This document shows, piece by piece, positions 1 to 63,128 of a stretch of DNA of 64,000 nt (its first letter is position 1; each line of letters opens with the position of its first letter). The position numbers and the translations under genes were made by a program. The DNA lies in NCBI GenBank assembly GCA_964016885.1, contig OZ024743.1, positions 106,640,001 to 106,704,000 on the forward strand, given 5' to 3'. Source of the DNA: Eledone cirrhosa (lineage: Eukaryota). The notes below the pieces were generated by a model. It saw nothing but the letters and a program-made list of their open reading frames with translations. It searched no databases and was not told where the DNA came from.

Positions 1-2686
1 GATTTGGAGATACAAAATTTAAAACTTTGAACTCCAAATTACACCAGTTGAAACAACAACTCACAGCTACAACAGAAAGACTAAAATATAAGTCAACAGC
101 ACATAAACGACAAGTGCTAAATAGATTGTTTGCCAGAGATCCTAAATCAGTTTATCGCAGCTTCGGTGGCAAAAGCTCAATCCCTGTAAACGACACCCCT
201 TCAAAAGAACAGGTTGAGAGCTAGTGGAGATCTGTATGGGAAACGGATGACGGATTCAACAGACAAGCTAATTGGCTAAAAGAACTGGAACAGGACAACT
301 GCCAACATGTCCAGATAAAACAATATGACATAGATGGGTCAATACTGGAAACAGCTCTACAGAAAATGTCGAATAGGAAATCGCCAGGCCCAGACCTCAT
401 TACAGGATACTGGTTGAAGAATTTCACTTTCTATCGGCAAGATCTCATACGGCTGTTTACAGAAACCATTAAAGGCACAAAAGAACTGCCCAGATGGTTA
501 TCAACTGCCACTACTCTCCTCATTCCCCAAACTAGCCAAACCACCCTTGCTAAAAATTACCGCCCAATAGCCTGCCAAAACATCATGTATAAATTATATA
601 CTGGGTGCCTTAACCTGTTCTTACAGGATCACTGTGCTACCAACAACATCATAACACCTGAGCAAGCTGGTGGAAAGAGGGAGGTGTGGGGTTGCATAGA
701 TCACCTACTAACTAACAAAATGATTCAGGAAAAAACAACAAAGAATCGCAGAAACATGACTGTGGTGTGGCTGGACTATCAAAAAGCATTTGATAGTGTA
801 CCTCATGGGTGGATTATTAAGGCTTTACAGTTAGCTAAAGTCCCACAACCATTGGTAGCTGCTGTTGAACGCCTAACGAAGAACTGGTACACCAATTTGA
901 TCCTTAGAGGTGAGAAGGAGCAAGTTAAGACTGATAAGATACATTACCAGAAGGGCATCTTTCAGGGTGATAGCTTGTCAGTGCTACTCTTCGTTCTCTC
1001 ACTGAATCCACTATCTTACCTACTCAGGAAACAGGGTGGACAAAGAAGTGGGCCCAGAAGTATCTCCCATCTTTTCTTTGTTGATGGCCTGAAGTTGTAT
1101 GGGCCAAATATCAATGACATCAAGAAACAACTAGACCTCATTACACAATTTTCAACCGACATCAAAATGAAATTTGGTGAGTCCAAGTGTTCATATTTGG
1201 CAATAAAACGTGGAAGAGCTGTGCTCTCCTCTAGAAATCTAGAGATGAACGACCTGACAATACAGCCTCTGCAGTCAGGTGACAACTACAGATATCTTGG
1301 ACAGGATGAGAATGTCAGATATGATGGACCCATAAATAAGGAGAGAACCAGAACTGAATACCTCAGAAGAGTAAAGAAAATATGGTCATCAGAACTGTCA
1401 GCATACAACAAATACATTGCCCACAATACTTATGCTGTGCCAATTCTAACGCCAACATTTGGCCTGCTGAACTGGTCATTACAAGAACTAAGTGAGATGG
1501 ATGTTAGAACTCGCAAACTTTTCAGTGTTACTAGGAACTTTAACATCAATGCTGATATGGATAGGCTATACTTCTCACGCAAGGAAGGTGGCCGGGGTCT
1601 AAAATCAATATTAACAACATATGAGACCCGGATAGTAACACTGAAGCAACACCTTCAACAGAGGAAAAAGGTTGGCAACCATCTTGCCCAGGTTTATGAG
1701 CATGAAAAAACAAATATCATTAGAATAGCGACTGATCTGGAGGAGAGATATGGAATAAAGCCTGATATAAATATCTCACCCAGAGAAATCGGAAGATCCT
1801 ATTCAATGTTCAAACAAGATAACAAACTTGACCAATTTACAGAAAAAGTTGTGCATGGATACTTGAGGCGTAAAACACAGACCATAGAGGGGATAAACCA
1901 CTCAAAAAGCCTGGCATGGAGTTCCGACAAGTTTATGACATCACACCTTGAAGGTTATCTCTATGCAATACAGGAACAAGAACTCCCTACCAAATATCTG
2001 CTGCACAAAAGAGGAGGGCCAGCAGCTGACAATAAATGTAGGCTATGTAAAACAAAGATCTAGGATGTAAGCCACATTGTTGCCAGCTGCGAAAGAATGT
2101 CATCTCGCTACTACCTCCCCATGAGACACGATGGGGTAGCTAGAACCATCTGGAACGCACTTCGGAAAACAAAATTAACAACAAACGAGGAAGAATATAT
2201 TGAGACAGATGGCACTAAGGAATACTGGTGGAACCTGAAAATAAAAACTGCCACCAAATTAAAGCACAACCGGCCTGATATTGTTGTTTGGGACCACACA
2301 TTGAAAACGTGTTCTGTTGTGGAGATCAGCTGCCCACTTAATGTAAACGTTGTCAGAAAAATACAGGAGAAGGAGGACATCTACGGACCATTGATGAGGA
2401 GTTTACAAATCCAGTATCCAAGATACACCTTTAGCTTCATACCCATCATCATTGGAGCTACGCGTTATATACCAACCCGCTTGGACCAAAGTATGACTGA
2501 ACTTGGATTTGCGGACAAAAAGCGCGGCTCCCTAATTCATAGCCTACAAATGGCTGCAATAGCTGGCACCTTCAAAATTTGCAAAATATTCTTGCGATTC
2601 AAGGGATGACAATTTCTTTTCTTCTACAACCTTGCCACCAGGAAGGTGGCCGGTCAAAAATTATACTCGAAATTAGAGAAAGAGAT
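1..2686 (+). mobile_element. R4/Dong-like (RLE-type) non-LTR retrotransposon, 5' end outside window, inactivated
   Basis: One frame broken by TAG at 222-224 and 2061-2063. RT motifs KSPGPD, NYRPI, WLDYQKAFDSVPH, GIFQGDSLS, FFVDG (catalytic DD mutated to DG), YRYLG. CCHC knuckle CRLC...H....C. RLE motifs RHD, PDIV, EISCP, K..EK...Y. Short 3' UTR with hairpin gccacc-aggaa-ggtggc abutting (TACA)n. Confidence 0.9.
366..2609 (+). pseudogene. RT + zinc knuckle + restriction-like endonuclease of the R4-like element
   Basis: ORFs 366..2063 and 2097..2609 are in the same frame, separated by one premature stop inside the CCHC motif. Confidence 0.88.
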
Positions 2687-4434: not shown

Positions 4435-4790
<356 letters not shown>

Positions 4791-8805: not shown

Positions 8806-8940
8806 CGAAGGAAATGTGGTAAGGAACCAGGTGGACCATAACGCACCAAAGTACTCAATACTTGAAGTAGTAGAGTGGGTAATAGGAACCAGTAAGACCC
8901 CGACAGCTGAGCTCAAGCCGTTTCGACGGCTAATTCTCTA
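8803..8940 (-). mobile_element. Family A PLE-tail element, single arm ending in HHR stem II
   Basis: Near-identical to the reverse complement of 43432-43568; begins in (TA)n. Confidence 0.8.
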
Positions 8941-17124: not shown

Positions 17125-17620
<496 letters not shown>

Positions 17621-20203: not shown

Positions 20204-20267
20204 TATTTTGTCTGATGAAGGCATACCATATTTTTAATATGATATCCCTGAAATAAATAATGAAATA
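20204..20267 (+). ncRNA. Type I hammerhead ribozyme in inverted pLTR
   Basis: uauuuugu-CUGAUGA-agg...ccu-GAAA-uaaAUA-augaaaua. Confidence 0.7.
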
Positions 20268-20396
20268 TATATGGTTTTATAAATATAGTTTCCATTTATT
20301 TAATATCGTAAATATACTCCAAATACTTGTTGAGTGCTTTTATATCAGTTATAAATATTTACTCGTTGTAACCCAACAATTTAAATAAAACTTTGC

Positions 20397-35199: not shown

Positions 35200-35207
<8 letters not shown>

Positions 35208-35292
35208 ATACTTTGGGAGGGTCCCAAAGTATAACAATATCGGTTTCAACACACGATTTCAGATAAAGAATCTTGCTAACCAAATTCAGAAA

Positions 35293-35295
<3 letters not shown>
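35200..35295. mobile_element. Collapsed family H fold-back element in (TA)n
   Basis: Hairpin atattgttatactttggga-ggg-tcccaaagtataacaatat plus tail matching the reverse complement of 16907-16963. Confidence 0.75.
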
Positions 35296-36402: not shown

Positions 36403-36611
36403 AGGAATAAGTATGACCCCGACGGCAGAGCTCAAGCTGTTTCAACGGCTATTTCTAGACGGCTATTTCTTGTCCAGAAATAGCCGTCGAAACGGCTTGA
36501 GCTCTGCCGTTGGGGTCATACTTTTTTCCCTATTACCCACTCTACTACCCTAAGTATTGAGTAAACTAGTGCGTTATGGTCCATCTGGTTCCTTACCAGA
36601 ATTCCCTCGTT

Positions 36612-36947: not shown

Positions 36948-37119
36948 ATGGCTTCTACAGAAGTAGAACTGTTTCATCTGGAGGAAATCATCAGTGAAGC
37001 CCGCCGAATTAAACAGTTCTTGTCCTGTAGAAGCCATGTCTATATTAAATATTTATACTCTGCCATGTATTGAGTACTTTACTTACTGTGGTTACCCCCG
37101 ATTGAACCCGGGATAAACA
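36948..37119. mobile_element. Family B fold-back element
   Basis: Homologous to 40605-40800; inverted arm carries a full HHR, direct arm starts in stem II. Confidence 0.75.
36950..37001 (-). ncRNA. Type I hammerhead ribozyme (family B)
   Basis: ggcuuc-a-CUGAUGA-uuuccuccagau-GAAACag-uucuacuu-cuGUA-gaagcc; stem II weak. Confidence 0.65.
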
Positions 37120-37286: not shown

Positions 37287-37293
<7 letters not shown>

Positions 37294-37427
37294 TAAAATT
37301 AGTCCTTCATTTGTGATCTTCCAACCTTTAGCGAAGAAATATCAATGAAGTTTGGAAGATCACTGATGAAGGACTAATTTTATTCATATGTAACCTATGT
37401 GCAACCACGCAGCGCGCTATCTTTCAC
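37287..37427. repeat. Short hairpin element (about 38 bp arms plus tail) in (TA)n
   Basis: atgaataaaattagtccttcat..gtgatcttccaa vs ttggaagatcac..atgaaggactaattttattcat. Confidence 0.7.
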
Positions 37428-37520
<93 letters not shown>

Positions 37521-38375: not shown

Positions 38376-38494
38376 AGCTCTAGTTTTCTTAACTATTGGA
38401 GCGCTTGCCAGCATTTCTACGATTTAGCGTTTCGTTTCGCTTTTTCTACCAGCCGAAATACGATTCTCGCTGAATTTATAATTGTATATATATA

Positions 38495-38533
<39 letters not shown>

Positions 38534-38820
38534 TAAAAAAACGAAAAATCAGTGATGCATCTGGACTCAGTTTATTGCGTATTACAATTGTTTCGCCGGC
38601 GAAACAATTGTAACGCGCATTAAACTGAGTCCAGATGCATCACTGATTTTTCGTTTTTTTATACTATCCACAGTCTGCTCTGTATGAATATTGAGTGCTA
38701 AATTTAGCATACCGCCTATGGAAGCTCTAGTTTTCTTAACTTTTGGAGCGCTTGCCAGCATTTCTACGATTTTGCGTTTCGTTTTGCTTTTTCTACCAGC
38801 CGAAATACGATTCTCGCTGA

Positions 38821-38868: not shown

Positions 38869-39084
38869 TATAAAAAAACGAAAATTCAGTGATGCATCTG
38901 GACTCAGTTTATTGCGTGTTACAATTGTTTCGCCGGCGAAACAATTGTAACACGCACTAAACTGAGTCCAGATGCATCACTGATTCTTGTTTTTTTATAC
39001 TATCCACACTCTGCTCTGTATGAATATTGAGTGTTAATTTTGTCATACCGCCTATGGAAGCATCATAGCTACCATTATACACAC

Positions 39085-39726: not shown

Positions 39727-40456
39727 TATATGATCACAAGAATATCTATTTTGTTAATATTTTGAATTAATATTAATAACTCTGGAATACCTGCTACTGC
39801 TGAGTGCTTCCAATTTATTGTAAAACTCATTCTTTGATGTATTCATTGAACCTTGTTAAACTTTTAATATATATATATATATAAGTATTGAAGTTTCCGT
39901 TGAAAATTGAAAAAGTCATAGGAGTGAAGAGTGCTCTATGTAAGTACCAGAGCAAAATTTCTCTTTCATTTAAGAATGTTTTTCTTTCTCATATATTGTT
40001 TCATTTTTACACATATATCGAGAATGATACTTTCTTTTAACTATTACACTCCCTTCCCTCTTTATCTTCCGCATATAAGTGATCGCGCGTGTGTGTGTGT
40101 TTATACACGTGCTTTCATACTCATATGTGTATCTAATATCTGTTTATGGATACGTGTCAACTAGATTATCATTTTCTTTTTCAACTCATATTATATCCGT
40201 ATTTGTGGTTACATATACACTAATGTGCTTGCCCTCATATATGTACTTACGCACACATTTTCACCATACACACGCATTTGTACATACATACATATGTACA
40301 CTTGTGAGTGTATATACATACATATACACACAGCTAACTATATTTCCTTATATTTTTTTATATATTTTATATATCTCTTGCATTACTATTTATATATATA
40401 TATATTTTTTTTGCATTTCTTGATGAGACTTTCCAAATATTTCAGTATGTTTCATA

Positions 40457-40608: not shown

Positions 40609-40800
40609 TTAATATAGATGAGATTCTACAGGACTAGAACTGTTTCATTCTTTAGAAATCATCAGGAGATTCCTGATGATTTCTAAAGAATGAAACAGTT
40701 CTAGTCCTGTAGAATCTCATCTATATTAAAACTTTTATACTCTGCTATGTATTCAGTACCTTACTTACTGTGGTTACCTCCGATTCAACCCGGAATAACG
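40605..40800. mobile_element. Family B fold-back element (about 62 bp arms plus tail)
   Basis: 40605-40666 is the reverse complement of 40672-40733; axis at the HHR stem I 5' strand; in (TA)n. Confidence 0.85.
40666..40718 (+). ncRNA. Complete type I hammerhead ribozyme (family B)
   Basis: gagauuc-CUGAUGA-u-uucu-aa-agaa-u-GAAACag-uucuaguc-cuGUA-gaaucuc; predicted cleavage after 40711. Confidence 0.85.
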
Positions 40801-43283: not shown

Positions 43284-43377
<94 letters not shown>

Positions 43378-43380
<3 letters not shown>

Positions 43381-43568
43381 CAAATAAGACCCCGACGGCT
43401 GAGCTCAAGCCGTTTCGACGGCTAATTCTGTACAGAATTAGCCGTCGAAACGGCTTGAGCTCAGCCGTCGGGGTCTTATTTGTTCCTATTACCCACTCTA
43501 CTACCCTAAGTATTGAGTACTTTGGTGCGTTATGGTCCACCTGGTTCCTTACCACATTTCCTTCGTTA
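43378..43568. mobile_element. Family A fold-back element with a perfect 108-bp palindrome plus tail
   Basis: 43378-43485 is perfectly self-complementary with axis ctgt|acag; in (TA)n. Confidence 0.9.
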
Positions 43569-43597
43569 TATATATATATATATGTGTGTGTGTATGT

Positions 43598-43780: not shown

Positions 43781-43855
<75 letters not shown>

Positions 43856-43857
<2 letters not shown>

Positions 43858-45443
43858 AGTATGTACACGTACATACATATATGTATACAGACGTACAGTA
43901 GTATGTATATATATATACATACATGCACACATACATATATGTACGTATGGATTTACCGAAAATTTATTATAATGCTCGGTGTGTTTGTAAACAAACATCT
44001 CGTATTAAGCCGTAGTGTCCAGCAACCATCGTTGCTCGTTTGTTCAACACTGACAAAGGAACGCTGAACGAGTTTCAAGCTTATTAGCTATCGTCAGCAA
44101 CGTATACCTTCCTGCCAGCTGGTTGAATGTATATACTTACCTTATGCATATTAACGGATGAGTAGCCCAATTTGCATATCGAGTGGTTTAATCGGCCGAG
44201 TGCACCGAAAACGATAAACGGAAAAAAATGAAACGAAATTTTATTTCGCACTCTTAGTACGGCTGTTACTTAAATATAAGTATGTACACGTACATACATA
44301 TATGTATACATACGTACAGTAGTATGTATATATATATATATATATATATACATACATGCACACATACATATATGTACGTATGGATTCACCGAACATTTAT
44401 TATAATGCTCGGTGTGTTTGTAAACAAACATCTCGTATTAAGCCGTAGTGTCCAGCACCCATCGTTGCTCGTTTGTTCAACACTGACAAAGTAACGCTGA
44501 ACTTGTTTCAAGCTTATTAGCTATCGTCAGCAACGTATACCTTCCTGCCAGCTTGTTAAACATATATACTTACCTTATGCATATTAACGGGTGAGTAGCC
44601 CAATTTGCATATCGAGTAGTTTAATCGGCCGGGTGCAGCGAAAACGATAAACGGAAAAAAATGAAACGAAATTTTATTTCGCACTCTTAGTACGGCTGTT
44701 ACTTAAATATAAGTATGTACACGTACATACATATATGTATACAGACGTACAGTAGTATGTATATATATATATATATACATACATGCACACATACATATAT
44801 GTACGTATGGATTTACCGAACATTTATTATAATGCTCGGTGTGTTTGTAAACAAACATGCCGTATTAAGCCGTAGTGTCCAGCAACCATCGTTGCTCGTT
44901 TGTTCAACACTGACAAATCAACGCTGTACTAGTTTCAAGCTTATTAGCTATCGTCAGCTGTTACTTATATATAAGTAACAGCCGTACTAAGAGTGGGAAA
45001 TGAAATTTCGTTTCATTTTTTCCGTTTATCGTTTTCGGTGCAAGCGGCCGATTAACCCACTCGATATTGAAATTGGGCTACTCAGCCGTTAATATGCATA
45101 AGGAAAGTATATACGTTCAACAATCTGGCAGGAAGGTATACGTTGCTGACGATAGCTAATAAGCTTGAAACTAGTACAGCGTTCCTTTGTCAGTGTTGAA
45201 CAAACGAGCAACGATGGTTGGTGGGCACTACGGCTTAATACTGGATGTTTGTTTACAAACACACCGAGCATTATAATAAATGTTCGATGAACCCATACTT
45301 ACATATATGTGTGTGTGCATGTATGTATATATATATACATACTACTGTACGTCTGTATACATATATGTATGTACGTGTACATACTTATGTTTAAGTAACA
45401 GCCGTACTAAGAGTGCGAAAGGAAATTTCGTTTCATTTTTCCC

Positions 45444-49622: not shown

Positions 49623-49665
49623 ACACCACACACTCCTTTTGTATAGTTATATACATATATATATA

Positions 49666-50311
49666 TAATGAAGGAATGAAGAATAACGCGAATAAGCTAT
49701 ACAGTAGCGTTTATTCCAAGTATTAACATTTCTTATTTCATTGTGTTTGTCATCTTGATATTTTTCATATTAATTATCTGTACACCTCAGTATAAATGCG
49801 CTGTATCGCAGTATGAAAGCAGTATTTTGATAATTTGGCTGTAATAAACAGTATTTAAAAGTGAATGTCGCAACAGCACTGCAGATAACGGTTTTTAAAC
49901 ACATCCAACCACATACTAGCCAATGAAATATATGTTAATACTTGGAATGAACCATATTGCATAGCTTATCAGTGTTATTCTTTATCCCTTCATTATTAAT
50001 ACTCCAGGAATTGCTTACCTACGAACTGTCAGAGACGCCACAACTAAGTCAACATCTTGTTGAATCATTAATATATAACTAACTAACTAAAGATATATAT
50101 ATATATATATATCTTATATATATATATATATATATATATATCTTTAGTTAGTTAGTTATATATTAATATATATATATTTAAATTAATGAGGTGTCGTATA
50201 AGGTAATCCAAGTAGAGGTTATGAGTAATCTGAATCGAGGAGGATTTTAATGTGCGGCATTATTTGATTCAACAAGATGTTGACTTAGTTGTGGCGTCTC
50301 TGACAGTTCGT

Positions 50312-61083: not shown

Positions 61084-61398
<315 letters not shown>

Positions 61399-62516: not shown

Positions 62517-62520
62517 ATTA

Positions 62521-63128
62521 CACTTCCCCATACAACATAGGTACCACACCATCTTTAATAAGAACAGAATAAGACTCTCCTACTCCACCACACCTGACCT
62601 AGCTAGGAATATAGCCAACCACAATTCTAAAAAATTAAATAAGCCAACCACCTCCGAACTCAATCCCCGGACTGGGGCTCTGTGTAATTGCCTAAAGAAG
62701 GAAGCATGCCCACTTGAAAACAAATGCCTCACAAATGATATCGGATACAAATGCGATGTCATCTCAGACACCGATGATTGCAAAAAAACTTACATCGGCA
62801 CGACCTCCAACACTTTAAGACCCGTTGGTATGCCCATACCCACTCCTTCAGAAGACCGGACAAATCAATCCAGACAACATTCGCCTCCTATGTTTGGGAC
62901 CTCAAAAGGAACTCGACCCCCTTCACGCTTAAATGGAAAATACTCCAGAAAGCGCGCTCTTACAACGGAGGACAAAAGGGCTGCGACCTTTGTATCTCAG
63001 AGAGCTACGAAATTTTATTCGCCAAGGGCCTGCTACTGAACAAACTCTCTGAACACTGCCCGAACTGCATGCACAATAACTTTGCAACTTTCAAATATGT
63101 TAAGCCAGTGTTAAAGCCCGATGGCTAA
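62521..63128 (+). pseudogene. Naiad-type PLE linker + GIY-YIG endonuclease, 5'-truncated, one frameshift
   Basis: [24 protein letters not shown]....CPL...CL, IGY..TYIGTT, frameshift near 62814, then FKTRW..H..SF, WDLK, W.IL, CDLC..E, LLN...E....CMH. Confidence 0.85.

Follow-up and report, generated by a model that had tools for sequence, protein, structure and literature searches.

A bulged, covarying and usually doubled hairpin tied to both copy ends of Hydra-clade Penelope-like elements, a candidate docking signal for their reverse transcriptase

In stringent LINEs and their SINEs, a short 3' stem-loop near a short repeat recruits the reverse transcriptase (RT) and permits mobilisation in trans. 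In the hepadnaviruses, the epsilon element, composed of a lower stem, a bulge and an upper stem, positions the RT at an internal start, and in telomerase a repeat primer is aligned on a short internal template beside a protein-bound structure. In L1 twin priming, each of the two target strands primes a cDNA on the same RNA, and a head-to-head inversion results. The hairpin described here, from Penelope-like elements (PLEs) of the Hydra clade, resembles each of these in some respects only. While LINE and SINE stem-loops lie 5' of the start and are copied, the Hydra hairpin is a doubled, internal feature of the RNA situated 3' of the start. The likeness to epsilon and telomerase RNA is one of form, implying neither protein priming nor templating by the bulge, and homology, compared via Rfam alone, gave no match. 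As for L1, the second start is opportunistic, whereas in the reading proposed below both starts would be fixed, each with its own hairpin.

As regards PLEs themselves, the element class, the inverted pseudo-LTR with its tail, the hammerhead and internal initiation are already published, and the puzzle addressed here is how a PLE chooses its two internal starts and comes to carry an inverted repeat with a one-sided tail. The sole in vitro study, on Poseidon_Ac (Frangieh et al., 2024; PMC11167929), mapped two internal RT starts bounding the tail at an AT-rich target, as is also proposed here. Both target strands were cut and extended, RNA 3' of the start was needed and a dimer was predicted, all of which have a counterpart in the present reading. 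Unlike here, Poseidon belongs to another clade and has its starts within the ORF, in an “AC-rich stem loop”; in the available text of that study the conserved signal is left undefined, a conserved or doubled hairpin on the 3' side of the starts being absent from the description, and by eye the figure sequence holds no RCUC/GAGY. The Poseidon RNA of supplementary figure 1B in the same source shows, by eye, two similar short units with an AC-rich run after each.

The Hydra clade itself was characterised by Craig et al. (2021; PMC8557442), with RWR, DKT and CxCX5C as its marks. The available parts of that account agree with the present elements as regards RW(R/K), DKT, the CxCX5C linker, a C-terminal GIY-YIG-type domain, a hammerhead in the pseudo-LTR, (TA)n targets and an inverted pseudo-LTR with a tail. 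They differ in giving tails of 30-40 nt, against about 57-167 nt here, and family A repeats at about 3.5 kb. They describe no hairpin, although the same hairpin can be recognised by eye in the Hydra consensus sequences published there from coral and sea cucumber, twice before the ORF in one of them. More generally, no description of the hairpin was found in Rfam or in the full-text literature, a scope outside which most subscription papers and Repbase notes fall, nor in the accessible text of PMC8557442, PMC4209133, PMC3846280, PMC2377424, PMC13282606 and a 2026 retrozyme preprint. Within this known class of elements, the novelty is a genuine, doubled structure that covaries, is found across the clade and is tied to both ends of the copies.

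The starting point was one insertion in the window, i.e., the whole 64-kb stretch of Eledone cirrhosa DNA that was analysed, to which all plain positions below refer. The features of this focal insertion and the other copies of the same hairpin in family A are as follows.

43495..43518, plus strand: hairpin 1 of family A (Hydra-clade PLE), with a 4-bp lower stem, a 4-bp upper stem and a 2-nt bulge; covariance model E=1.5e-4
43374..43431, minus strand: inverted arm of the focal insertion, ending at site 1, 5 nt 5' of hairpin 1
43432..43569, plus strand: direct arm of the focal insertion, ending at site 2
43490..43569, plus strand: one-sided tail from site 1 to site 2, about 78 nt
43441..43475, plus strand: 3' half of a hammerhead-like motif, namely the stem II 3' strand, GAAA core, stem III, predicted cleavage triplet and stem I 3' strand
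43321..43377, unstranded: (TA)n target repeat of the left flank, with a second run at about 43567-43584
36539..36562, plus strand: hairpin 1 of a family A copy (strict pattern and covariance model)
61326..61349, plus strand: hairpin 1 of a family A copy (strict pattern and covariance model)
8853..8876, minus strand: hairpin 1 of a family A copy (strict pattern and covariance model)

The final 3 nt of the focal inverted arm are common to the TA repeat, and the same end recurs in 18 of 23 incidental family A ends near hairpin 1. In family A copies that read through, site 2 lies 3 nt 5' of a second hairpin, hairpin 2, which the focal copy lacks. The hammerhead-like motif was identified by eye, its 5' core being absent from the truncated focal copy, and no Rfam hammerhead falls at 43441..43475 among the best 150 of 238 window matches. 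Many family A fold-back centres (window 43428-43435; L001-L030) sit on short palindromes in the long stem II region of the hammerhead. Read-through in family A leads into an ORF with RWR, DKT and CxCX5C, and many copies hold intact, near-identical frames of about 784 codons. Family A was probably active recently, as judged from its tandem arrays of near-identical intact 3.5-kb units (G000:C1:437200456-437211408, among others). Families A and B also have retrozyme-like derivatives, i.e., short head-to-tail units of about 190-260 nt comprising the hammerhead, both end sites and the ORF start (L032:9581-10000; G000:C3:36232142, C4:279229177, C9:23835467).

Besides family A, hairpins of the same form belong to several other families in the window.

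37057..37075, plus strand: hairpin 1 of family B (Hydra clade; strict pattern and covariance model), in a lineage without a canonical hairpin 2
40739..40757, plus strand: hairpin 1 of a family B copy, one mismatch in the lower stem (covariance model)
39013..39032, plus strand: hairpin 1 of family G in its inner register, the outer register starting at 39008
38677..38696, plus strand: hairpin 1 of a family G copy (strict pattern and covariance model)
20316..20335, plus strand: hairpin 1 of the 20316 family (earlier label Naiad), joined to a Hydra-clade ORF
17236..17254, minus strand: hairpin 1 of a 20316 family copy (strict pattern and covariance model)
39779..39805, plus strand: decayed hairpin 1 of a fifth Hydra family (covariance model)
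4695..4728, plus strand: hairpin 1 in a sixth of the Hydra families, whose tail measures about 160 nt (strict pattern and covariance model)
39933..39953, minus strand: hairpin of a further family, absent from the preliminary description and the best covariance-model match in the window
38377..38402, plus strand: hairpin of another family absent from that description, 3-nt bulge in this copy (covariance model)
62518..63039, plus strand: fragment from the 3' part of a broken ORF in a family B Hydra element, with CxCX5C linker and the start of a GIY-YIG-type endonuclease

The families at 39933-39953 (minus strand) and 38377-38402 (plus strand) have further copies in the genome, and their (TA)n ends come about 45-85 nt after the hairpin. 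A decayed look-alike at 50001-50035 (plus strand) lies 4 nt past the inverted-arm end of a fold-back at 49665-49996; its outer pair is mismatched, its bulge has 3 nt and it is absent from the covariance-model list. Elsewhere in the window, 225-2609 (plus strand) holds a broken LINE-type reverse transcriptase (Pfam RVT_1) with no relation to the hairpin finding.

All twelve hairpin sites listed in the preliminary description were found where it had placed them. With a strict pattern, defined as RCTC, at least 3 upper pairs, TT and GAGY, the window holds 10 sites against 0.24 +/- 0.51 (maximum 2) in 100 block-wise dinucleotide shuffles. Genome-wide, evenly spaced stretches totalling 800 kb hold 35 sites against 1-7 in 10 shuffles. 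The fold as first described therefore stands, though its UU bulge has to be widened to U plus any base. Among the 16 possible 2-nt bulges compared in the 800-kb sample, UU (35), UC (18) and UA (12) are prominent, and 63 family-level hairpins comprise 39 with UU, 12 with UC, 11 with UA and one with UG. The consensus reads RCUC, then 2-4 or more upper-stem pairs, then UN and GAGY, often with ACU after it. A covariance model trained on 8 metagenome hairpins alone and run on the window gave 17 matches at E<=10, among them 11 of the 12 earlier sites (39008 being absent), and all 7 matches at E<0.1 are hairpin sites. At 39008, the outer register first proposed for family G is slightly preferred by RNAfold; on the other hand, the inner one (39013/38677) is intact in both window copies and fits the clade consensus. 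The outer pair is G-C in 48 of the 50 hairpins from metagenomes, which makes A-U, found in most families of the window, the rarer form. The hairpin is weak, with a mean of -4.4 kcal/mol, and the opposite strand is as stable at -4.8, so that folding leaves RNA and single-stranded DNA equally eligible as the acting form; counts of G-U versus A-C likewise do not distinguish the strands. The Rfam matches in 20 loci and the best 150 of 238 in the window were confined to microsatellite-driven miRNA models and two unrelated hammerheads, with no match to the hairpin at the gathering score among them. Chance resemblance in AT-rich repeats, for which speak the shortness of the motif and the presence of a loose version of it in 6 of 117 ORF-internal windows, is refuted by the shuffle, genome-sample, copy-end, covariation and covariance-model controls, and its probability is negligible.

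The six families of the preliminary description, there held to be dissimilar PLE derivatives, turn out to be one clade, Hydra, as judged from protein motifs: all six (A, B, G, 20316, 39779, 4695) join ORFs with an N-terminal RT region and RW(R/K), which argues for a motif inherited within a single clade. Read-through copies of B, G, 20316, 39779 and 4695 reach Hydra-type ORF starts. The change from DKG to DKT is found in A, B, 20316, G and 4695, the sole 39779 locus stopping before the motif, and the CxCX5C linker with a C-terminal GIY-YIG-type endonuclease is present in A and B, the two families scored. A canonical hammerhead core pattern occurs in B, 20316, 39779 and most metagenome loci, while A and 4695 have variant cores by eye; these ribozymes are predictions from sequence, to which Rfam gives no score. 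The insertion target of the Hydra-type families is (TA)n. The earlier assignment of 20316/17236 to Naiad is thus replaced, the ORF beginning with the RT N-terminal region and having DKT, with a canonical hammerhead core at 20212, where Naiad would have had an N-terminal endonuclease, DKA and no canonical hammerhead, none of which was seen. Nematis, a label first given in the present analysis, was discarded against the definition of Hydra in the available text of Craig et al. (PMC8557442). The protein tree was built without reference sequences of other PLE clades, and the Hydra call rests on motifs. Viral contigs gave no match, either to a single protein or to the alignment.

The hairpin was first described as a single stem-loop of the tail. 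In fact, it usually occurs twice in the stretch that separates the hammerhead from the start codon, and the second copy, missed at first, marks the far end of the tail. Hairpin 2 lies just past the direct-arm end in five of six families, family B being the exception, and in all loci it stands about 35-80 nt before the start codon. The distance past the end is 3 nt in family A; 4 nt in family G (one read-through copy among 20 loci) and 6 nt in the 4695 family (tail about 160 nt), in both of which the query was free of the motif; and 4 nt in the 20316 family (11 of 12 loci), where the query contained RCTC. In the 39779 family hairpin 2 was seen in one of two matches, again with a query containing RCTC. 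The two hairpins are 78, 83, 92, 95 and 167 nt apart in the five families, site 2 tracking hairpin 2 rather than any fixed length.

On the side of site 1, the preliminary description had a fixed distance between the stem and the end of the inverted arm; instead, it is family-specific and spans 2-12 nt, namely 5 nt in A, 2 nt in 20316, 9 nt in G, 3-8 nt in 4695 and, less certainly since the reference differs there, 3-12 nt in B. Its claim that inverted-arm endpoints are tied to the motif holds. For incidental copies ended by (TA)n in four families, 104 of 107 ends fall within 14 nt 5' of a hairpin (A 57/58, 20316 35/35, G 5/7, 4695 7/7), after leaving out matches shorter than 28 nt or below 78% identity, ends no more than 15 nt from the edge of a locus or without a following (TA)n, loci fetched by the family's own query, and duplicate loci. 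In four sets of read-derived contigs, taken from public runs, TA-tailed ends of family A again fall at site 1 and site 2, though the runs with the best family A contigs may come from the assembly's own sample; a search of sequencing runs listed none of RNA. In family B, 15 of 24 ends lie beside hairpin 1. More than 5,000 of its copies end at a precise site 2, by a count pattern that admitted TA continuations, and 124 matches read through. No canonical hairpin was found at family B site 2 in either subfamily; all that is present there is the 3'-strand sequence and, 7-8 nt downstream, another hairpin of 4 bp. The point where family B copies end (L268, L356-L358) is predicted to lie inside a multibranch loop, and one subfamily also ends in (CA)n.

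Beyond the octopus, a profile of 79 homologous proteins gave 77 metagenome loci, with a median of 47% amino-acid identity, from which 51 upstream regions in 33 clusters were obtained. The hairpin is present in 29 of the 33 clusters and was not found in the other 4, compared with 6 of 117 ORF-internal control windows fitting the loose version; at least 21 clusters have two hairpins, 57-83 nt apart, and a looser rule gives second hairpins in additional clusters. Where metagenome contigs carry a shorter second copy, 8 of 19 scored junctions lie 2-4 nt before a hairpin and 3 of 19 at 7-11 nt, the other 8 being elsewhere or due to indels and 5' junctions. Covariation was assessed on the 63 family-level hairpins, found by the lower stem alone. 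Upper pairs 1-3 are paired in 62/63, 49/63 and 42/58, against 49.8, 26.8 and 23.2 in shuffles (P=0.0002), and the excess appears with a 2-nt bulge only. Along the protein tree, pair 1 of hairpin 1 goes from U-A to C-G or back about 9 times, pairing being kept at 40 of the 41 tips, and at two loci the outer pair has turned to U-A in both hairpins. Counts were made on anchored pairs and on two equal-length subsets, MAFFT having left 47 hairpins of unequal length ungapped. By a standard pair count the 35-nt hairpins are supported (0 of 500 shuffles as good) and the 32-nt hairpins weakly so; the inner three lower-stem pairs are invariant and lend no covariation support. As such, the upper stem covaries far above shuffles, if weakly in the shortest hairpins, and the proposal of a covarying structure in Penelope-like pseudo-LTRs whose position follows the copy ends is borne out.

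The motif appears clade-specific, on the basis of one non-Hydra family and a text search of the supplement to Craig et al. (PMC8557442). The tailed family at window 35200 has an ORF that is not of the Hydra type, its C-terminal zinc-finger linker being of the Neptune/Nematis kind, and across its 11 loci no covariance-model match falls under E=5. In the supplement, 11 of 15 8-mer matches lie outside the Hydra file and none of them has the hairpin in the displayed context, where line breaks may hide matches. Nor do three further tailed families have the canonical motif, and the initial statement that each fold-back family carries it gives way to four recurrent tailed families that lack its canonical form; of these, family Z has a partial look-alike. 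Families W (37288-37430) and V (about 43850-45400) are hammerhead-bearing and tailed without the motif, and a read-through search of tailed family Z gave 2 matches, both TA continuations. The family at 35200-35294 (L314-L325) has a tail of 54-56 nt with the same 7-nt context at both end sites, and may have another kind of doubled signal.

With a probability that we put at roughly two in three, the hairpin is an RT-docking signal that would form in the RNA of Hydra-clade elements, be bound by the RT and set the start of reverse transcription. In this scheme, the RT-endonuclease protein would bind the hairpin and nick the (TA)n repeat, the freed TA end would anneal to the UA-rich stretch beside the hairpin, and copying would proceed upstream, leaving uncopied the hairpin that sets that start. 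Priming would occur on both target strands, with one hairpin for each, and might be carried out by a dimer of the protein bound to a single RNA. Once the two cDNAs were joined head to head, the one started at site 1 would form the inverted arm and the one started at site 2 the direct arm, with the tail as the stretch between the two sites. Annealing of a nicked (TA)n primer beside the hairpin fits two observations, namely that 29 of 48 hairpins have TATA or ATAT in the 14 nt on their 5' side, compared with 14.0 in composition shuffles and 10.5% of background windows, and that copy ends have 2-6 nt in common with the target repeat. A precedent is the published text on Poseidon (Frangieh et al., 2024; PMC11167929), in which the tail is bounded in vitro by two internal starts, both target strands are extended and RNA lying 3' of the start is required. 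Against docking count the precise site 2 of family B without a canonical hairpin, the weakness of the hairpins, a distance that varies by family, the 4 of 33 clusters without a hairpin, and an in vitro precedent from another clade whose figure sequence shows no motif by eye.

Granting docking, the inverted arm could be the fold-back of one site-2 cDNA copied back to site 1, which we consider rather unlikely. Head-to-head insertions have one arm at each site in 31 of 32 (binomial P 8e-9 versus free choice), as fold-back likewise predicts. Comparison of arm reach in 84 insertions, a set including loci fetched with the family's own query, has the site-1 arm at least 15 nt further 5' in 13, the reverse in 9 and about equal arms in 62, the focal insertion among the last. 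These equal arms, often centred on short palindromes, suit fold-back as well as docking with two primings and to that extent count against the latter; in the 13, however, the site-1 arm holds element sequence missing from the site-2 arm, which simple fold-back cannot yield, even if later deletions could account for some. Two priming events account for all three classes, fold-back for the last two only. Another reading, which seems unlikely to us, has the hairpins act in DNA, the GIY-YIG endonuclease recognising them in single-stranded cDNA or extruded DNA and cutting 2-12 nt off, so that the ends would be cleavage or resolution points. The minus-strand fold is as stable, the accessible text of Craig et al. 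(PMC8557442) explains the tail by resolution through the endonuclease, and the Drosophila Penelope endonuclease needs the tail for recognition, as cited in the available part of Frangieh et al. (PMC11167929). On the contrary, the same part of the latter study identifies the tail boundaries in vitro as RT start sites on sense RNA, and the ends, with their 2-6 nt of TA target, fall inside a conserved TA-rich stretch, as priming by annealing predicts.

It is also quite improbable, and a little more so than action in DNA, that the hairpins serve some other purpose of the 5' leader, such as translation control, hammerhead folding, RNA stability or packaging, the UA-rich stretches alone setting the starts and being neighbours of the hairpins merely by sharing a leader with them. 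The constant nearness of hairpin 2 to the start codon in all loci and the precise site 2 of family B would suit such a role; yet leaders offer many other TA-rich stretches, at the background frequency given above, while nearly all ends fall beside a hairpin, and site 2 shifts with hairpin 2 from 78 to 167 nt. A template of antisense RNA, on which the hairpins would be stop signals like the telomerase template boundary, with synthesis halting 2-12 nt short, is very improbable. An antisense self-primed PLE template has been proposed (PMC3846280, in the text available) and the fold is possible on both strands, but fixed 3' ends joined to (TA)n with variable 5' ends are what target priming on sense RNA would give, copies ending at site 2 would need to traverse hairpin 1, and sense RNA is active in vitro in the published Poseidon text (PMC11167929).

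To return to docking on sense RNA, its fullest form, held tentatively and at somewhat less than even odds, would be a programmed twin priming, in which two docking hairpins, each with its UA alignment stretch, let a dimeric telomerase-related RT prime both (TA)n strands on one RNA. A motif of 20-30 nt, conserved in the clade, doubled and present at both ends, lends itself to exact mutants, family A with its many intact, near-identical ORFs being a ready substrate and family B a natural variant. PLEs are the closest mobile relatives of telomerase, and in them, too, a repeat primer would be placed on an internal template. If the fullest form is true, the hairpin and its alignment stretch would constitute a portable, minimal “start here” module for a sister enzyme of telomerase, and the length of the tail would be set by the spacing of the hairpins.
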